The position numbers were made by a program, and so were the translations under genes. A stretch of 64,000 bases of DNA from Clostridia bacterium (GTDB lineage Bacteria; Bacillota; Clostridia; Oscillospirales; Acutalibacteraceae), in the NCBI GenBank assembly GCA_900768075.1, contig CAAGBN010000068.1:10827-74826 (forward strand). Reading direction: 5' to 3'. Shown one piece after another: positions 3,893 to 57,891 of the stretch (the stretch's first letter is position 1; each line of letters starts with the position of its first letter). Under the pieces are notes generated by a model, which worked only from the letters and a program-made list of their open reading frames with translations, was not told the origin of the DNA and did no database searches.

Positions 3893-4142
3893 AATATCGT
3901 TTAAAAGCTATGACTGAGAAAACAGTAGTCGACGGACAAGACTTTTCAGAGAGGGATTCATATGCTGAAAGAATCCTACTGTCCCCGAAGATGAATTTCG
4001 CCTCACGAGCCGCCTGTGAAAAGCAGGATGTAGTTGCTGCATTAAAGCAAACCAAAGTGGCAGGGTACAAAACAAACCTTGCAATTTGAGTGGTACCACG
4101 GATATTTTTCCGCCTCAATGTTATGAGGCGGTTTTATTTTTT
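3893..4142 (+). promoter_or_regulatory. T-box riboswitch leader (Phe) with terminator/antiterminator
   Basis: T-box sequence aatttgagtggtaccacgg at 4083-4101. Terminator ccgcctc/gaggcgg at 4110-4131 followed by a T-tract. AGAGA-type motif at 3947-3953. Tentative UUC specifier at 3997-3999. Lies directly upstream of pheS. Confidence 0.8.
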
Positions 4143-5232: not shown

Positions 5233-7593
5233 ATGTTTTTATCAATGAATTGGATTTCAGACTTTGTTGACCTTGAGGGTATCGATAAGCTTGACCTTAT
5301 CCACAGATTCTCACTCTCAACAGCTGAAGTTGAAAACGAAATTTTCTTCAAGGGTAGCGACATCAGCGGTATCGTTGTTGCTGAAATCAAGGAAATCGCA
5401 GATCACCCCGAATCAAAGAAGCTTCACCTTTTAAAGGTTGATGCAGGCGACGGTCAGCTCACAGATGTTGTTTGCGGTGCTCCCAATGTAAGAGTTGGTA
5501 TGAAGACTGCTTTTGCTAAAATCGGTGCAAAGATCGGTGAAATCGATATCACACCCAGAGCTCTTGCAGGTTACACCTCCTACGGTATGTGCTGCAGCGG
5601 TAAGGAAATCGGTATCAGCGACGATAACAGCGGTATTATGGATATTACAGACGATATTCCCAACGGTACCGATATCAAGGATGCATACGAAGTTGAAGAT
5701 ATCATCTTCGAGGTTGACAATAAGTCACTCACAAACCGTCCTGACCTCTGGGGTCACTACGGTATTGCAAGAGAGTTTGCAGCTCTTGCAGGCAGACCTC
5801 TCAAGGCTCTTGACAGTGCAGATCTTTCCAAGTATGACAATCTTCCCAAGGTTGATATGAAAATCGAAGACGACCTTTGTCAGAGATATTCCTGCTTACA
5901 GGTTGAAAACATCACAAAGAATGTCAGCCCCGTAAATATGCAGATCAGACTCTTCTACTGCGGTATGAGAAGCATTAATCTTCTCGCTGACCTTACAAAC
6001 TACCTTATGCTTGAAATGGGTCAGCCTATGCACGCTTTCGACTCAAGAAAGGTTGAAAAGCTTCGCATCAAGCGTTTCGATGAAAGCTTCAGCTTCACAA
6101 CTCTTGACGGTATCGAGAGAAACATCGACGAAAACACACTTATGATCTGTAACGGTGACACACCTGTTGCTATTGCAGGTATTATGGGTGGTCTTGACAG
6201 TGAAATCGTTGAAGACACAACAACACTTACTCTTGAAAGTGCTACCTTCAACGCTGTTTCAATCCGTAAGTCAACAGTAAGACTTTCACACAGAACAGAC
6301 GCTTCAATGAGATATGAGAAGTGCCTTGACCCCGAAATGACAGTACCTGCTATTGCCCGTTTCGTTAAGCTTCTTCAGGATATCGACGGTGGCGTGAATG
6401 TTGTTTCAGCTCTTACAGACGAAAAAGCTTTCGAATACGATAAGGTAAGCCTCAGCTTCGACAAGAAGTTTGTTGACAGATATACAGGTATCGAAATCAG
6501 CAACGAAACTATCGTTAAGACTCTCGAAAGCCTCGGCTTCGGTGTAGAGCTTAAGGGTGACGATTTCACAGTTGCAGTACCCTCATGGAGAGCAACTAAG
6601 GACGTAACTATCAAGGCTGACATCATCGAAGAAATCACAAGAATTTACGGCTACGATAACTTCGATATCCACACAACAGAGTCACCTATTTATCCCGTAC
6701 GTCCCGATGTAGAAAAGACAGTTGAAGACAAAATCAAGGATATCCTTGTTAAGCGCTTCTCACTTCACGAAATGCACTCATATGTATGGATGTACTACGA
6801 TGAGTGTAAGGATCTCGGCATCGAAATCGAAGATAACGTTAAGCTTGTAAATGCTACTAACCCCAACATTGAGGTTATCAGAAAGTCAATCGTTCCCACA
6901 CAGCTTTGTCAGGCTAAGATCAACAACACATATGCTCCCTCATTCGGCATCTTCGAAGTGGGCAGAGTTGTTGAAGGTCTTAAGGAAGACGGACTTTGCA
7001 ACGAAAAGAAGAAGCTTGCTATCACACTCTTCTCAAAGACAAAGTCAATGGAAGAAATTTACTTCGAGCTTCGTGATATGCTTGCAACTCTTGCTCTTGA
7101 TATCAAGCATCTTTCACTTTCATATGAAACTATCGCAGCTACACATTGCTATCAGCATCCCAAGAACCTCAACGCTGTAATTCTCGGTGGCAAGGTTATC
7201 GGTGAAATCGGTATTGTTCATCCTACAGTATCAAAGAAGGTTGATAAGAAGGCTAACATTGTTTACGCTGAAATCGACGTTAAGGATTTCGCTGAAGCTG
7301 CAGCAGATGCTATCAAGTACGAAGAACCCTCAAAGTTCCCCGGCATCGAAATTGACCTTTCATTCATTAGCGATAAGTTTGCTCCTATCGGCAAGGCTAT
7401 TGCAGATGCAAACTGTCCTCTTGTTAAGAAGACAGAGGTAGTTGATACTTACGCTGACGAAAACGGTAAGTCAATCACTTCAAGAATCACTTTTGCTCAT
7501 CCTGAAAAGACTCTTACAAAGGAAGAGGTTATGGATGTTGTAAACGGCATTATTGCTGACCTTGAAGCAAAGGGCATCAGCCTCAAGAAATAA
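5233..7593 (+). CDS. pheT: Phenylalanine--tRNA ligase beta subunit
   Basis: 786 aa. N-terminal tRNA-binding domain, B3/4, B5 and FDX-ACB-like C-terminus. Immediately follows pheS. Confidence 0.95.
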   Translation: MFLSMNWISDFVDLEGIDKLDLIHRFSLSTAEVENEIFFKGSDISGIVVAEIKEIADHPESKKLHLLKVDAGDGQLTDVVCGAPNVRVGMKTAFAKIGAKIGEIDITPRALAGYTSYGMCCSGKEIGISDDNSGIMDITDDIPNGTDIKDAYEVEDIIFEVDNKSLTNRPDLWGHYGIAREFAALAGRPLKALDSADLSKYDNLPKVDMKIEDDLCQRYSCLQVENITKNVSPVNMQIRLFYCGMRSINLLADLTNYLMLEMGQPMHAFDSRKVEKLRIKRFDESFSFTTLDGIERNIDENTLMICNGDTPVAIAGIMGGLDSEIVEDTTTLTLESATFNAVSIRKSTVRLSHRTDASMRYEKCLDPEMTVPAIARFVKLLQDIDGGVNVVSALTDEKAFEYDKVSLSFDKKFVDRYTGIEISNETIVKTLESLGFGVELKGDDFTVAVPSWRATKDVTIKADIIEEITRIYGYDNFDIHTTESPIYPVRPDVEKTVEDKIKDILVKRFSLHEMHSYVWMYYDECKDLGIEIEDNVKLVNATNPNIEVIRKSIVPTQLCQAKINNTYAPSFGIFEVGRVVEGLKEDGLCNEKKKLAITLFSKTKSMEEIYFELRDMLATLALDIKHLSLSYETIAATHCYQHPKNLNAVILGGKVIGEIGIVHPTVSKKVDKKANIVYAEIDVKDFAEAAADAIKYEEPSKFPGIEIDLSFISDKFAPIGKAIADANCPLVKKTEVVDTYADENGKSITSRITFAHPEKTLTKEEVMDVVNGIIADLEAKGISLKK

Positions 7594-7597
7594 AAAA

Positions 7598-7656
7598 TAT
7601 CGCGTTTTTGATTCTTTTTCCGCGATAGGAAAAAGAATGCCTGCCCGGCTAGGGCA
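7598..7656 (+). repeat. Stop-codon-proximal two-hairpin repeat, family A, copy A1
   Basis: HP1 attctttttcc (7611-7621) / ggaaaaagaat (7628-7638). HP2 tgccc-ggcta-gggca (7642-7656). Near-identical to 55503-55545 and related to 8305-8359 and 57751-57810. Confidence 0.8.
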
Positions 7657-7671
7657 AAGAAAGATTGATAA

Positions 7672-7749
7672 CCCCTCAGTCAAAATTGACAAGCCAATTT
7701 TGACATCTCTCCTTTCAGGGGCGACTAGAAAGAGGTTGCACCTGCGGTG
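7672..7749 (+). repeat. Structured repeat module B, copy B1
   Basis: The flanks cccctc..gtca..tgacatctc..cctttcagggg.gac..gaggtt are shared with 55627-55691. The internal hairpin is replaced (gtcaaaattg/caattttgac). Confidence 0.7.
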
Positions 7750-7760
7750 AAATTATAACA

Positions 7761-7796
7761 GTGCAGAAGTTAACCGCTTCTGCACTTGCTTTTTTA
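7761..7796 (+). terminator. Intrinsic terminator of pheST
   Basis: gtgcagaag / cttctgcac stem, loop ttaaccg, then ttgctttttt. Confidence 0.8.
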
Positions 7797-7849: not shown

Positions 7850-8302
7850 ATGAAAAACAGTAACGCCTTACAGGCAGTAAAATTCGCTTTGTTCTCAGCT
7901 TCGGCAGGTATCATTCAGGTAGGTTCATTCACACTGCTCAATGAGCTTGTTCTGCCTAACATCAACATCGAAAACGAAAAGATTATGGCAATTTTAAGTG
8001 CAGAATATGGTGTATGCTATCTTATCGCCCTTATCCTTTCGGTTTTATGGAATTTTACATTCAATCGTCGCTTTACCTTTAAGTCAGCAGCTAATGTGCC
8101 TATTGCTATGGCAAAGGTTTTCGGCTTCTATCTTGTGTTCACACCTGTTTCAACAATCCTCGGCGAAATGGCAACAGGCAAGGGTATCAATGAGTATATT
8201 GTTCTTGGTCTGACAATGCTTTCAAATATGGTGCTCGAGTATCTTTTCTGCAAGTTTGTGGTTTACAAGGGTCAGGAAAATACACTGGAAGAGAAAAAAT
8301 AA
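7850..8302 (+). CDS. GtrA family membrane protein
   Basis: About 150 aa with 4 TM helices. The FxLFSAxAGIIQ N-terminus and NFTFNRRFTFK motif are typical of GtrA-like proteins. ATG 7850 lies behind AAAGGAGG; the track start 7829 is a TTG. Confidence 0.75.
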   Translation: MKNSNALQAVKFALFSASAGIIQVGSFTLLNELVLPNINIENEKIMAILSAEYGVCYLIALILSVLWNFTFNRRFTFKSAANVPIAMAKVFGFYLVFTPVSTILGEMATGKGINEYIVLGLTMLSNMVLEYLFCKFVVYKGQENTLEEKK

Positions 8303-8304
8303 GG

Positions 8305-8359
8305 AAAGTTCTTTTGATTGCTTTTCTTTCAAGAAAAGTAATGCCTGCACGGCGAGTGC
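8305..8359 (+). repeat. Family A repeat, copy A2
   Basis: ttttgattgcttttct..agaaaagtaatgcc followed by tgcac-ggcga-gtgca. Aligns with A1, with a compensated HP2. Confidence 0.65.
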
Positions 8360-8475
8360 AAAGAAAAAATAGTTTGATAATATAAAGGACCGCAATGAAT
8401 TTTGGGAGCCACAAGAGGATATGCTTTTTGCCGGTGCACAAAAACAACACAAAATGCGCTGATTTTTATATTAAT

Positions 8476-34094: not shown

Positions 34095-34347
34095 ACTTAC
34101 GACTTAAAGAAGGATGTCGTTTTGCTTAAGCCGATTACTCGCGGCTCCACAATATCATCAAAGGCAGGTCTTCTGACTCAGCTATCAATGCCTTGCTTCG
34201 TCTTCTCGGCCTTCACCAATGACTGTGCTTTTGCACCTGAAGCAAGACTCCTGCATTACAGCGACGAGTTCGTGAGGGATTTTCACCCTTCTTCCCTTTT
34301 CACCGGATATATAAATTTATCCGACACCTTAGATGTTTATTCACTTG
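34095..34347 (-). promoter_or_regulatory. Cobalamin riboswitch
   Basis: On the minus strand: GGGAAGAAGGGTGAAAATCCC (plus 34276-34297) and B12 box AGTCAGAAGACCTGCC (plus 34163-34178). ccttctttaa can pair with the RBS region, which suggests translational control. Confidence 0.8.
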
Positions 34348-54640: not shown

Positions 54641-55492
54641 ATGAATAAAAACGTATTCGGTACTGACCTTACAGGTAAGACCGCAGTTGTAACAGGTGCA
54701 GGCGGTGTCCTTTGCTCTTCATTTGCAAAGACTCTTGCAGCTGCAGGCGCTAAGGTTGCTCTTCTTGATATCAACGAAGAAGCTGCTAAGGGCTTCGCTG
54801 ATGAAATCGTAGCTGAGGGCGGTGTTGCCAAGGCTTATAAGTGCAACGCTCTCGATAAGGACAGCTGTAATGCTGTAGCTGAAGCAGTTTTAGCTGACCT
54901 TGGTCCTTGCGATATTCTTCTCAACGGTGCAGGCGGTAACAATCCTAGAGCTACCACAGATAAGGAATATTACTTCAGCGGTGACATCGATGAAGACTGC
55001 AAAAACTTCTTCAATCTTGATGCTGACGGTGTTTCATTTGTTTTCAACCTCAACTTCCTTGGTACTCTTATTCCTACTCAGGCATTTGCAAAGCAGATGC
55101 TCGGCAGAGAGGGTTGTAACATTATCAACATCTCATCAATGAACGCTTTCACACCTCTTACAAAGATTCCTGCTTATTCAGGTGCAAAGGCTGCTGTTTC
55201 AAACTTCACACAGTGGCTTGCAGTTCACTTCTCAAAAGAGGGTATCAGAGTTAATGCTATTGCTCCCGGTTTCTTCTCAACCAAGCAGAATGCTGCTCTT
55301 CTCTGGAATCCCGACGGTTCACCCACACCCCGTACAGACAAGATTCTTGCTGCTACTCCTATGGGTCGTTTCGGTGAAGCTCACGAGCTTGACGGCGCAC
55401 TTCTTTTCCTCATCAACAACGATGCAGCAGGCTTTATCACAGGTGTTGTACTTCCCGTTGACGGTGGCTTCTCATCATACAGCGGTGTATAA
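54641..55492 (+). CDS. SDR family oxidoreductase (candidate short-chain D-mannonate/fructuronate reductase)
   Basis: TGAGGVL Rossmann motif and a YSGAK catalytic motif. Start at ATG 54641 behind AGGAGG; the longer track ORF overlaps uxuA. Confidence 0.8.
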   Translation: MNKNVFGTDLTGKTAVVTGAGGVLCSSFAKTLAAAGAKVALLDINEEAAKGFADEIVAEGGVAKAYKCNALDKDSCNAVAEAVLADLGPCDILLNGAGGNNPRATTDKEYYFSGDIDEDCKNFFNLDADGVSFVFNLNFLGTLIPTQAFAKQMLGREGCNIINISSMNAFTPLTKIPAYSGAKAAVSNFTQWLAVHFSKEGIRVNAIAPGFFSTKQNAALLWNPDGSPTPRTDKILAATPMGRFGEAHELDGALLFLINNDAAGFITGVVLPVDGGFSSYSGV

Positions 55493-55500
55493 AAAATAAC

Positions 55501-55555
55501 AACGCGTTTTTGATTCTTTTTCCGCGGCAGGAAAAAGAATGCCCCGCGGCGAGCG
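55501..55555 (+). repeat. Family A repeat, copy A3
   Basis: cgcgtttttgattctttttccgcg is identical over 24 nt to A1. HP1 55513-55523/55530-55540. Weak HP2 cgc-ggcga-gcg. Confidence 0.8.
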
Positions 55556-55626
55556 ATAATTAATAAACAATTCGAAATCTCGGATGAGTCAGATTAAGAG
55601 ATAAAATCTGATGCCGCAAAATTAAA

Positions 55627-55691
55627 CCCCTCTGTCACTTCGTGACATCTCCCCTTTCAGGGGTGACGAGGTTATAGTGGCACCTTAGTGC
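55627..55691 (+). repeat. Module B repeat, copy B3
   Basis: cccctctgtcacttcgtgacatctcccctttcaggggtgacgaggtt followed by the small hairpin gcac-ctta-gtgc. Aligns with 7672-7749. Confidence 0.7.
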
Positions 55692-56720: not shown

Positions 56721-57746
56721 ATGGCTAAAAGAATTGTAACATTCGGTGAAATTATGCTTCGTCTTGCTCCCGAAGGCTATCTTCGTTTCTTCCAGAACGA
56801 TACAATGCAGGCTACTTTCGGTGGCGGTGAAGCTAACGTTGCTGTATCACTTGCAAACTACGGTATGGATGCTTCATTTGTAACAAAGCTTCCTGCACAC
56901 GCTATCGGTCAGGGTGCTGTTAACTCACTTCGCGGTCTCGGTGTTGACACAAAAGACATCGTTCGTGGCGGTGACAGAGTAGGTATCTACTTCCTTGAAA
57001 AGGGTGCATCACAGAGAGGCTCAGTTTGTATCTATGACAGAGCTCACTCAGCTATTCAGGAAGCTAAGAGAGAAAATTTTGACTGGGATAAGATCTTTGA
57101 CGGTGCTGATTGGTTCCATTTCACAGGTATCACTCCCGCTCTTGGCGAAAATCTTGTAGAAATCTGCATAGATGCTTGTAAGGCTGCTAAGGCTAAAGGC
57201 GTGAAGATTTCTTGTGACCTTAACTACAGAGGTAAGCTCTGGACAAGAGCTCAGGCAAGAGAAGCTATGACAAAGCTCTGTGAATATGTTGACGTTTGCA
57301 TTTCAAACGAAGAAGATGCTAAGGACGTATTCGGTATCGAAGCTGAAAATACCGACATCTATGGCGGTAAGCTCGATAAGGAAGGCTATAAGAGTGTTGC
57401 TAAGCAGCTTATGGATACTTTCAAGTTTGAAAAGGTTGCTATCACACTTCGTTCATCAATCTCAGCTAACGACAACGATTGGGCAGGTATGCTCTACGAC
57501 GGTGAAAACTACTGCTTCTCAAAAGAGTATCATCTTCATATTGTTGACCGTGTAGGCGGTGGCGACAGCTTCGGTGGCGGTCTCATCTACTCACTTCTCA
57601 GCGGTAAGGACTCACAGAGTGCTATCGAATTTGCAGTTGCAGCTTCAGCTCTCAAGCACTCAATCGAGGGTGACTACAACCGTGTAACTGTTGCAGAGGT
57701 TGAAAAGCTTGCAGGCGGCGACGCAAGCGGTAGAGTTCAGAGATAA
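56721..57746 (+). CDS. kdgK: 2-dehydro-3-deoxygluconokinase (PfkB family)
   Basis: IVTFGEIMLRL, GGGEANVAV and DRVGGGDSF motifs. Confidence 0.9.
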   Translation: MAKRIVTFGEIMLRLAPEGYLRFFQNDTMQATFGGGEANVAVSLANYGMDASFVTKLPAHAIGQGAVNSLRGLGVDTKDIVRGGDRVGIYFLEKGASQRGSVCIYDRAHSAIQEAKRENFDWDKIFDGADWFHFTGITPALGENLVEICIDACKAAKAKGVKISCDLNYRGKLWTRAQAREAMTKLCEYVDVCISNEEDAKDVFGIEAENTDIYGGKLDKEGYKSVAKQLMDTFKFEKVAITLRSSISANDNDWAGMLYDGENYCFSKEYHLHIVDRVGGGDSFGGGLIYSLLSGKDSQSAIEFAVAASALKHSIEGDYNRVTVAEVEKLAGGDASGRVQR

Positions 57747-57750
57747 TCAT

Positions 57751-57810
57751 TAGCGCATTTTTGGTTGCTTTTTGTGCGCTAACAAAAAGTAATGCCCGCC
57801 CGGCGAGGGC
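57751..57810 (+). repeat. Family A repeat, copy A4
   Basis: HP1 ttgctttttgt 57766-57776 / acaaaaagtaa 57783-57793. Loop gcgcta is complementary to tagcgc 57751-57756. HP2 gccc-ggcga-gggc 57798-57810. Confidence 0.75.
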
Positions 57811-57891
57811 TGTACAAAAAGGAATAAAGCAGGCAGGTGGTTTGAGCTTGCCTGCTGACATAAAAAAGAAAACAAAAGGAGAACAAACCAA

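Follow-up and report, generated by a model that had tools for sequence, protein, structure and literature searches.

A 64-kb window from an Acutalibacteraceae genome assembly (the whole stretch of DNA analyzed here, 64,000 nt of contig CAAGBN010000068.1) contains four copies, A1 to A4, of a short two-hairpin element located directly behind genes. The copies follow pheT (open reading frame, or ORF, 5233-7593), a gtrA-like gene (7850-8302), an SDR gene ending at 55492, and kdgK (56721-57746). All four are on the plus strand, and each starts 2 to 9 nt past the TAA stop codon of a mechanically called plus-strand ORF (4/4). They can be aligned across about 65 nt and share a common layout: a CG-rich hexamer, a U-run, a first hairpin (HP1) with U-run and A-run arms, the sequence AATGCC, and a second hairpin (HP2) with a GGCKA loop. 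The chance expectation of a strict pattern search of the window is 0, as judged from shuffles. A covariance model (R1), trained mostly on copies from elsewhere plus two of the window's copies and run without filters, scores the four copies at 50 to 80 bits (E values of 1e-10 to 7e-18) versus 22 bits for the next match, and the next-best matches are merely the HP1 palindrome taken on the opposite strand. Coordinates, ORF ends, and R1 all agree with the initial annotation of this DNA, which had placed four copies after TAA stops on the strand of the upstream ORF. The copies and their parts are as follows.

7591..7593, plus strand: TAA stop codon of pheT (ORF 5233-7593); A1 begins 4 nt further on.
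7598..7604, plus strand: A1 segment X, TATCGCG, putative 5' strand of pseudoknot stem S1, with partner CGCGATA at 7621-7627 (family-wide covariation of X and the HP1 loop).
7605..7610, plus strand: A1 pyrimidine tract UUUUU and conserved G, the proposed Hoogsteen strand and loop L1; its U5 equals the A5 at 7630-7634.
7611..7638, plus strand: A1 HP1 (S2), ATTCTTTTTCC / GGAAAAAGAAT, loop GCGATA (minimum-free-energy fold; R1 match 7594-7658, 60.6 bits; pair counts).
7639..7656, plus strand: A1 invariant GCC linker and HP2, with a GCCC/GGGC core and loop GGCTA (fold and pair counts).
7760..7796, plus strand: intrinsic terminator 3' of A1, 7760-7786 plus a T-tract (terminator scan).
8303..8360, plus strand: A2, after the gtrA-like gene (TAA 8300-8302; R1 79.5 bits), comprising GGAAAG, tract TTCTTTT 8309-8315, G 8316, HP1 8317-8342 (ATTGCTTTTCTT tc AAGAAAAGTAAT), GCC 8343-8345, and HP2 8346-8360, as aligned by R1.
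55496..55556, plus strand: A3, after the SDR gene (TAA 55490-55492; R1 50.4 bits), comprising ATAACAA, X CGCG 55503-55506, tract T5 55507-55511, G 55512, HP1 55513-55540, GCC 55541-55543, and a short HP2 (CGC/GCG) 55545-55555.
57750..57811, plus strand: A4, after kdgK (TAA 57744-57746; R1 62.1 bits), comprising X TTAGCGCA 57750-57757 with partner TGCGCTAA 57775-57782, tract T5 57758-57762, G 57763, HP1 57764-57793, GCC 57794-57796, and HP2 57797-57811.

The element belongs to a family that extends over several phyla. A pattern scan of species-representative genomes identified at least 111 loci (given L numbers below), and R1 found about 150 full-length copies in the listed loci, some of which fall outside the search pattern. 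Most of the listed loci come from Acutalibacteraceae, Oscillospiraceae, or "Clostridia" gut metagenome-assembled genomes (MAGs), with several copies each, and 10 of them come from the complete genome of Bengtsoniella intestinalis BP47G. Further carriers are Cytophagales (the isolates Jiulongibacter sediminis and Lacihabitans sp.), candidate phyla radiation (CPR) MAGs, and a few other lineages; 5 of the listed loci are chance matches. The taxonomy of MAGs is possibly affected by mis-binned contigs, but the two Cytophagales carriers are isolates. The copies belong to related subfamilies and are not independent observations.

Base pairing is conserved across the family through compensatory change. 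Standard pairs fill 92.9% of the pair cells, compared to 75.7% with shuffled partners and 45 to 68% with slid partners; 15 of the 17 pairs have changed on both sides, and none of 500 shuffles reaches any of the observed measures. Because the pairing alignment had been fitted to the model, and because the copies share ancestry, the figures lean toward structure. The base of HP1 alone occurs as AUUAC/GUAAU, GUUAC/GUAAC, AACAC/GUGUU, GUCAC/GUGAC, GUAAC/GUUAC, and CAUAC/GUAUG, and the four inner pairs of HP2 occur as three to five pair types each. The covarying stems of the initial annotation are therefore upheld except for the outermost T/C-A pair of HP2, which is C.A in 39 of 121 distinct copies and is unsupported, leaving HP2 as a 4-bp stem. 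Similarly, of the AATGCC described as conserved, only GCC is invariant; the ATG part varies, and AACGCC variants occur. Inserts of 20 to 105 nt, some of them hairpins themselves, interrupt the loop of HP1 or HP2 in several copies (L006 5436-5620; L032 1061-1137; L137 and L226; L091 3705-3803), with both arms kept. We rejected a mini-ORF consisting of a Shine-Dalgarno-like GGA, the ATG of AATGCC, and a peptide MPARRGQ*, as the ATG becomes ACG upon an HP1 base-pair change and the HP2 stems covary as RNA while the "peptide" changes. One may speculate that the GCC linker pairs with the GGC of the HP2 loop in a second mini-pseudoknot, or that GGC acts as a tRNA-Gly "specifier"; both triplets are invariant, so covariation is uninformative on their pairing.

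The wobble pairs reveal which strand folds. HP1 contains 26 G-U pairs versus 1 A-C, indicating that the folding strand is the sense strand of the upstream gene. This asymmetry bears directly on the possibility that the antisense strand is the functional one, with the reverse complement of HP2 followed by CAUUCUUUUU serving as a terminator against convergent or antisense transcription entering the gene. A terminator scan does flag the minus-strand HP2 and its T-rich tail at 7658-7640, 8362-8344, and 57807-57795. However, each sense G-U would be an antisense A-C mismatch, the U-tract is interrupted and begins 3 nt past a stem of 4 to 5 bp, and such a terminator would leave the X/loop and three-strand covariation described below unexplained. 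We consider an antisense terminator extremely unlikely and rejected it as a candidate on the strand asymmetry of HP1. The same asymmetry, the sense orientation at convergent gene pairs, and the compensatory differences between orthologs favor the RNA-level role that had been thought plausible, and the comparison of copies argues that the element is very probably a structured RNA of the sense strand.

The pseudoknot suspected between the 5' segment X and the HP1 loop (X') is also borne out by covariation. Matched X and X' form on average 4.66 contiguous Watson-Crick pairs, versus 3.42 +/- 0.10 when mismatched across copies, with a mismatched maximum of 3.79 in 1000 permutations. Within the CG-rich subclass, CGCG is partnered by CGCG, CGTG by CACG in 10 of 11 copies, and CGCA by TGCG in 7 of 8, and the pairing extends into the flanks, including AUCGCG/CGCGAU and UUAGCGCA/UGCGCUAA. 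Distant lineages contribute UCG/CGA (Bengtsoniella) and GUGC/GCAC, and copies from the metagenome hold-out described below contribute the new pairs GUGGCC/GGCCAC and UGUGC/GCACA. Orthologous sites are informative as well. The MAG locus L006, whose kdgK protein is 97% identical to that of the window, has counterparts of A3 and A4 behind its own SDR gene and kdgK, in flanking DNA that is 81 to 86% identical; its ortholog of A3 has an insert of about 105 nt within the HP1 loop. Its ortholog of A4 differs from A4 by a double compensatory change in X/X' (GCGCA/UGCGC versus GCGUG/CACGC), and the HP1 differences are compensatory too. This comparative evidence supports S1 in the CG-rich subclass and in several distant lineages. 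The A-rich subclasses have a 5' flank (G)UAAAG, which is bound to be complementary to the U-rich arm and shows no covariation with it; we therefore do not count S1 as supported there. They include A2, from which the initial annotation had reported the pseudoknot to be absent; A2 does have a 5' GAAAG complementary to CUUUC, but this pairing is ambiguous and without covariation.

A relation among three strands is new here. Stems and pseudoknot had been noticed in the initial annotation, but this relation and the wide taxonomic spread had not. The pyrimidine run between X and the conserved G is the parallel image of the purine 3' arm of HP1, and it likewise mirrors the HP1 5' arm. Tract and arm occur together as UUUUU|G with AAAAA|G, UUUU/AAAA, U7/A7, U8/A8, UUCUUU/AAGAAA, UUCUUUUU with AAGAAAAA, and UUUUCUUUU with AAAAGAAAA; the UUCUUUU tract of A2 is a complete parallel match with AAGAAAA. 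The U-run is as long as the A-run in 103 of 116 distinct copies, at lengths from 3 to 8, and UUC in the tract co-occurs with AAG in the arm in 28 types. The rule also holds in Bengtsoniella, Cytophagales, and CPR, with U8/A8, U7/A7, and U4/A4. At orthologous sites, all three strands change jointly, as in U5/U5/A5 versus U4/U4/A4 (L028/L044 and L080/L011) and U7 versus UUCUUU (L088/L099).

We evaluated this correspondence in a hold-out of metagenome contigs, using a pattern that was free of any tract constraint and constrained run length only to three A. At least 120 loci were listed, about half of which are chance matches in coding DNA, and 37 distinct true copies were obtained. The U-run equals the A-run in 35 of these 37, and new variants follow the same relation: UUUCUUU with AAAGAAA, UUCUUU with AAGAAA inside an A4GA3 arm, and CUUUU with GAAAA. 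Among 24 tracts containing C, 17 match the arm completely when read in parallel and 12 when read antiparallel. An antiparallel hairpin between the tract and the A-run was rejected: the common UUC/GUAAU types miss it by one mismatch, the GAAU-base subclass is the only one in which it works, and in the CG-rich class it would consist of just five isolated A-U pairs.

A third strand that runs parallel to the purine strand and places U against A-U and C against G-C is the hallmark of a major-groove triple helix of the pyrimidine motif. From 5' to 3', the strands come as X, tract, HP1 5' arm, X', and HP1 3' arm. H-type pseudoknots with loop 1 in the deep groove of stem 2 have this order, and telomerase RNA, SAM-II, and preQ1-II have the same geometry. 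On the strength of the covarying strands, we think it likely that the element forms a U.A-U / C+.G-C major-groove triple helix within an H-type pseudoknot.

The position of the element relative to genes is equally constrained. We tabulated the context of 113 copies in Oscillospirales loci, with ORFs of at least 80 amino acids called mechanically. A sense ORF ends at most 30 nt before the tract (mostly 2 to 18 nt) in 84 of the 113 (74%), compared to 10.9% of random oriented intergenic positions, and an antisense gene end adjoins 5, which extends the stop proximity and strand concordance of the window to the family. The stop is TAA in 77 of 84 cases (92%) versus 342 of 549 (62%) long ORFs in the same loci. 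TAA is in fact built into the conserved 5' end, which reads A-UAA-CA-N-CGCG or UAA-GCAUCA-N-CGCG in one class and G-UAA-AG-UUCUUUU in the other, and is kept even in copies without an upstream ORF. A sense terminator-like hairpin with a U-tract is present within 110 nt in 50 of 109 copies (46%; median of 12 nt further on), compared to 4.9% of random windows. The usual order is stop codon, element, terminator, as at pheT, and other copies are intercistronic, as are A3 and A4. The terminator that had been noted after the pheT copy was found at 7760-7786 plus its T-tract, which places A1 within the 3' untranslated region (UTR) of pheT. At convergent gene pairs, each gene has its own sense copy, with the 3' ends facing each other 20 to 240 nt apart, indicating that orientation tracks transcription and not the replication strand. 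The genes preceding the copies have housekeeping roles and are unrelated to one another (77 proteins with 136 Pfam families), and no gene association was found among these 77 upstream proteins.

This tight stop proximity and the strong TAA bias raise the possibility that the element is a translation-termination signal, in which a triple-helix pseudoknot 0 to 10 nt past the stop slows or stalls the terminating ribosome and tunes termination, recycling, transfer-messenger RNA (tmRNA) tagging, or coupling to the next cistron. Triplex-bearing pseudoknots of the frameshifting type withstand ribosomal unwinding, so the architecture would be suitable, and a ribosome at the stop would be expected to cover X and part of the tract. 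REP (repetitive extragenic palindromic) elements were reportedly found by Liang and Deutscher to have an effect when within 15 nt of stop codons. However, the spacer between stop and structure ranges from 0 to about 11 nt, while recoding signals need fixed spacing; 26% of copies are away from any ORF end; the copies in Bengtsoniella, Cytophagales, and CPR are not stop-proximal; and no in-frame extension is conserved (the next stop is a median of 13 codons away, and tandem stops occur in 14 of 84). We regard a termination signal as distinctly unlikely. The more specific candidate of a programmed read-through or frameshift stimulator was rejected on the variable spacer (versus a fixed 5 to 9 nt) and the lack of a conserved extension ORF.

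Several further sequences recur around the copies. A second repeat, "family B" (CCCCTCNGTCA...TGACATCTCYCCTTTCAGGGG), follows A1 and A3 at 7672-7725 and 55626-55667; the segment is missing from the orthologous spacer in L006, and similar units are found near element copies in L013 and L183. Short tandem repeats or mini-hairpins of several kinds lie between the element and the next GC-rich hairpin, namely ATGAATT repeats (L102, L062, L046, L010) and ATGCARA repeats (L115, L013, L054, L104) in the 3' flanks, and arrays of TCGATAT hairpins (L090, L030, L114) and CATGAAAT hairpins (L105, L055). They may be further 3'-UTR modules or protein-binding arrays. Near-identical terminators past the element recur at unrelated loci in different MAGs, one set in L094, L026, L060, and L078 (AAAGYAGCAGA...TCTGCTRCTTTTT) and another in L011, L080, and L076 (AAGACCTGCAAG...CTTGCAGGTCTT), suggesting that element and terminator may travel as a single 3'-end cassette. 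Downstream of terminators, a unit GGGGCTTTGCCCCTT...CAAGCTTTTGTAAAAGCTTG recurs in L073, L103, L088, L099, L107, and L058.

The family has spread as an interspersed repeat. At orthologous sites that are empty in one genome and filled in another (L036/L045 and L011/L080), the extra DNA starts directly past TAA, and sites filled by differing subfamilies suggest gene conversion or re-insertion in place. These observations raise the question of whether the element is only a selfish DNA-level repeat of the MITE (miniature inverted-repeat transposable element), REP, or IS200/IS605-relic type, inserting at TAA or A-rich sites without an RNA function, whose hairpins and intrastrand triplex would be recognized as single-stranded DNA by a transposase or recombinase. 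The initial annotation had offered a repeat with a preference for TAA and A-rich sites, and the TAA half of this idea stands, given the TAA in the conserved 5' end and the filled sites starting right after the stop. A selfish repeat would also account for the many copies per genome, for distinct subfamilies common to several genomes, for the presence/absence polymorphism and subfamily replacement, and for the enrichment of TAA stops; moreover, intrastrand triplex repeats already exist in bacterial DNA (PMC4666352). On the other hand, orientation tracks the upstream gene even at convergent pairs, as a mechanism acting on single-stranded DNA of the replication strand would not. The 5' end (A-TAA-CA-N-CGCG) and the 3' end (the GGCGAG stem) are not mutual inverted repeats as in a MITE, and the two empty/filled comparisons, the only two informative sites, show no clear target duplication and no terminal inverted repeat. 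No transposase or integrase was found among the 77 flanking proteins in the 8-kb loci, the plasmid and phage collections searched contain no match to the motif, and a pattern scan of viral contigs returned chance matches only. Copies also persist at orthologous sites with their pairing kept, and Cytophagales have the motif as a single copy, within a noncoding region that is longer, structured, and conserved. We judge that a repeat without RNA function is unlikely. As a separate observation, L056 (538-1797, minus strand) contains a 419-amino-acid ORF with an IS110-like N terminus (GIDIGK...) that converges on an element copy on a short contig; IS110-family elements target repeated hairpins.

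In Bengtsoniella, Cytophagales, and CPR, the motif is part of longer noncoding regions. In Bengtsoniella, it is located within a noncoding repeat of 600 to 800 nt with two divergent copies, followed by arrays of 16-nt mini-hairpins (L033 2880-3652 and 4830-5727; also L014, L034, L047, L050, L079, and L081). The tandem arrays read (CCCCTGCGGTAGCAGA)n, the one in L079 is very long, and there is no Rfam match to the repeat. In Cytophagales and CPR, the motif forms the 3' domain of an intergenic region that is longer, structured, conserved, and away from stop codons, and at least one such copy is flanked by a divergent gene, making an own promoter probable.

Searches for a known family returned nothing. 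At the gathering threshold, Rfam 15 identifies only two RNAs in the whole window, both away from the copies: a T-box leader before the pheS/pheT operon (3901-4120, plus strand) and a cobalamin riboswitch (34146-34346, minus strand). None of the four copies has a relevant match at E values up to 10, five related loci have no Rfam match, and full-text literature searches found no description of the motif, in agreement with its having gone unrecognized at first. The element thus appears to represent an RNA family absent from Rfam and from the literature searched, and it falls outside the definitions of REP/BIME, MITE, TMECO/BoxC, ENE (element for nuclear expression), and recoding signals. With its unpaired invariant nucleotides between covarying helices across phyla, and a topology like that of the SAM-II and preQ1-II riboswitches, it could conceivably be an RNA that senses a ligand or a ribozyme that processes itself, with a pocket or active site formed by the invariant G, GCC, and GGC together with the triple-helix pseudoknot. 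However, more than 100 copies per genome following unrelated genes, a location downstream rather than upstream of genes, the lack of any Rfam ribozyme or riboswitch match at E values up to 10, and loops that tolerate large insertions make a sensor or ribozyme very unlikely. Each of the four alternatives (termination signal, antisense terminator, selfish repeat, and sensor or ribozyme) fits less well with the asymmetry between strands, the variability of the spacer, or a distribution that does not depend on the gene.

We propose instead that the element would be a structured RNA module of the sense transcript, usually in the 3' UTR between TAA and an intrinsic terminator and sometimes between cistrons. 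In an H-type pseudoknot, the 5' segment X would pair with the HP1 loop, and the U/C-rich linker from X to HP1 would lie in the HP1 major groove parallel to the purine arm, forming 4 to 9 U.A-U and C+.G-C triples. One conserved G would cross the lower five base pairs of HP1, followed by the invariant GCC and the 4-bp hairpin, whose loop contains the invariant GGC. With its purine strand engaged in Watson-Crick and Hoogsteen pairs at once, the module would be a barrier to 3'-to-5' exonucleases and may accordingly stabilize mRNA 3' ends as ENE/MALAT1 triple helices and REP elements do. Additionally or alternatively, a protein that recognizes the invariant G, GCC, and GGC may dock on it. The exonuclease resistance of ENE/MALAT1 and the mRNA stabilization by REP elements in the same niche favor the 3'-end barrier or stabilizer. 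The hairpins, the X/loop pairing, the three-strand correspondence, sense folding, and the position between stop and terminator all draw their support from sequence comparison, which also supports a fold kept by selection in 3' UTRs. The probability of the proposal as a whole, a triple-helix pseudoknot module acting as a 3'-UTR stabilizer or protein platform, is in our view evenly balanced, and by analogy we hold the stabilizer or platform function itself only tentatively.

Several points weigh against this proposal. The X/loop pairing is unsupported in the A-rich subclasses, about 45% of copies. L1 (the tract and G) is long enough for a pseudoknot; L3, leading from X' back to HP1, measures 0 to 3 nt, which is short for spanning an S1 of 4 to 7 bp, so S1 and the uppermost HP1 pairs may form alternately and not at the same time. 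Homopolymer tracts fit a parallel and an antiparallel relation to the A-run alike, and C+.G-C triples require protonation. The tract is missing in some variants (L157/L187), a second Bengtsoniella type fits poorly, and the limited number of subfamilies implies far fewer independent events than copies. The functional role is one that we infer throughout, and a terminator hairpin already shields many such 3' ends, where an extra stabilizer is not obviously needed.

A bolder joint reading, which we consider possible but doubtful, is that the element is the first bacterial counterpart of ENE/MALAT1, a mobile, multicopy triple-helix cap right behind stop codons. Endonucleolytic cleavage or self-cleavage near GCC would then leave a blunt, triplex-protected mRNA 3' end, the invariant G, GCC, and GGC would be a processing or protein-recognition site, and free-standing small RNAs of Cytophagales and CPR would have adopted the module as their 3' domain.

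If the proposal holds, an abundant 3'-UTR triple-helix pseudoknot portable between phyla would be a new class of bacterial RNA triple helix, would mark more than 100 gene ends per genome in a major gut-anaerobe family, and would provide a compact, sequence-defined candidate part for bacterial mRNA stability or insulation. The strict sense orientation, built-in TAA, and subfamily exchange also raise the question of how the element is copied to sites behind stop codons, as no known repeat mechanism tested explains copying to positions directly behind them. Bengtsoniella intestinalis BP47G, a cultured carrier with a complete genome, makes these questions directly testable.

Among known RNAs, the triple helices of ENE/MALAT1 (PAN, MALAT1, MEN-beta, and transposon ENEs) are closest in chemistry. 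They too contain U.A-U triples with an occasional C+.G-C on a doubly locked A-rich strand, and they too are found on the 3' side of transcripts, where locking by Watson-Crick and Hoogsteen pairs confers the resistance to 3' exonucleases that is proposed for the element. As judged from sequence correspondence, the element fits the ENE criterion of U.A-U triples on an A-rich strand (103/116 and 35/37, with C of the tract opposite G). In an ENE, however, a hairpin uses its U-rich internal loop to clamp an A-tract or poly(A) that is separate from it and located at the RNA 3' end. Here, the Hoogsteen strand precedes a simple hairpin that provides the A-strand with its own 3' arm, and the triplex is not at the encoded RNA 3' end but is followed by GCC, HP2, and often a terminator. 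ENEs are also eukaryotic or viral. A 2026 review gives none for bacteria, and it gives bacterial RNA triple helices only for riboswitches and group II introns.

Telomerase RNA, SAM-II/SAM-V, preQ1-II, and frameshift pseudoknots share the order S1 5', U-rich L1, S2 5', S1 3', S2 3', with L1 parallel to the S2 purine strand. The element appears to fit this H-type triple-helix pseudoknot, as the comparison of copies supports S2, the correspondence of L1 with the S2 purine strand, and, in the CG-rich subclass and several distant lineages, S1. It differs in having no sequence or Rfam similarity to these RNAs, an S2 of 11 to 12 bp with the triplex on its upper part only, and a nearly absent L3, and in being multicopy, downstream of genes, and without a consistent gene association.

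REP/BIME, ERIC, and pneumococcal BOX/RUP repeats are likewise short, structured, and located in transcribed intergenic DNA behind stop codons, at tens to hundreds of copies per genome, to which the copy number of the element can be likened. REP elements stabilize upstream mRNA and, within about 15 nt of the stop, affect translation. The element has another sequence and fold, a strict sense orientation, and a distribution over several phyla. The RAYT-associated REP/BIME repeats are defined by GTAG and an imperfect palindrome of 20 to 40 nt, and no GTAG precedes either hairpin here; where copies of the element are paired, each belongs to one of two convergent genes, and their spacing is not fixed as in REPIN doublets. 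The attC sites of integrons also abut stop codons, but the carriers are dispersed core genes (pheT, kdgK, obg, and ligA), which makes membership in attC cassettes implausible.

Finally, the BoxC / PIT / TMECO intrastrand triplex repeats of bacteria are intergenic and have, in succession on a single strand, three blocks able to form an intramolecular triplex (Holder et al. 2015, PMC4666352), and Holder class IV has the same 5' Hoogsteen block, pyrimidine block, and 3' purine block as the element (PMC4666352). Under the Holder/Hoyne criteria (stems of 6 to 15 nt and loops of 1 to 6 nt), class IV accommodates the order of the blocks and a first loop of 6 nt (G + AUUAC), and the triplex length of 4 to 9 nt leaves some copies below the 6-nt Holder minimum. 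TMECO is a G/C-rich purine-motif (class II) repeat of Proteobacteria that was interpreted at the DNA level, and purine-motif triplexes are impossible in RNA (PMC4666352). In contrast, the triplex proposed here is of the pyrimidine motif, which is feasible in RNA, and the element is A/U-rich, with an RNA-type strand asymmetry and additional pseudoknot and hairpin parts; G/C blocks of the TMECO/BoxC pattern CCCTCNCCC-N3-6-GGGNGAGGG-N3-GGGNGAGGG are absent from it. The element thus resembles ENEs in chemistry, telomerase RNA and SAM-II in topology, REP elements in genomic niche, and Holder class IV in block order.

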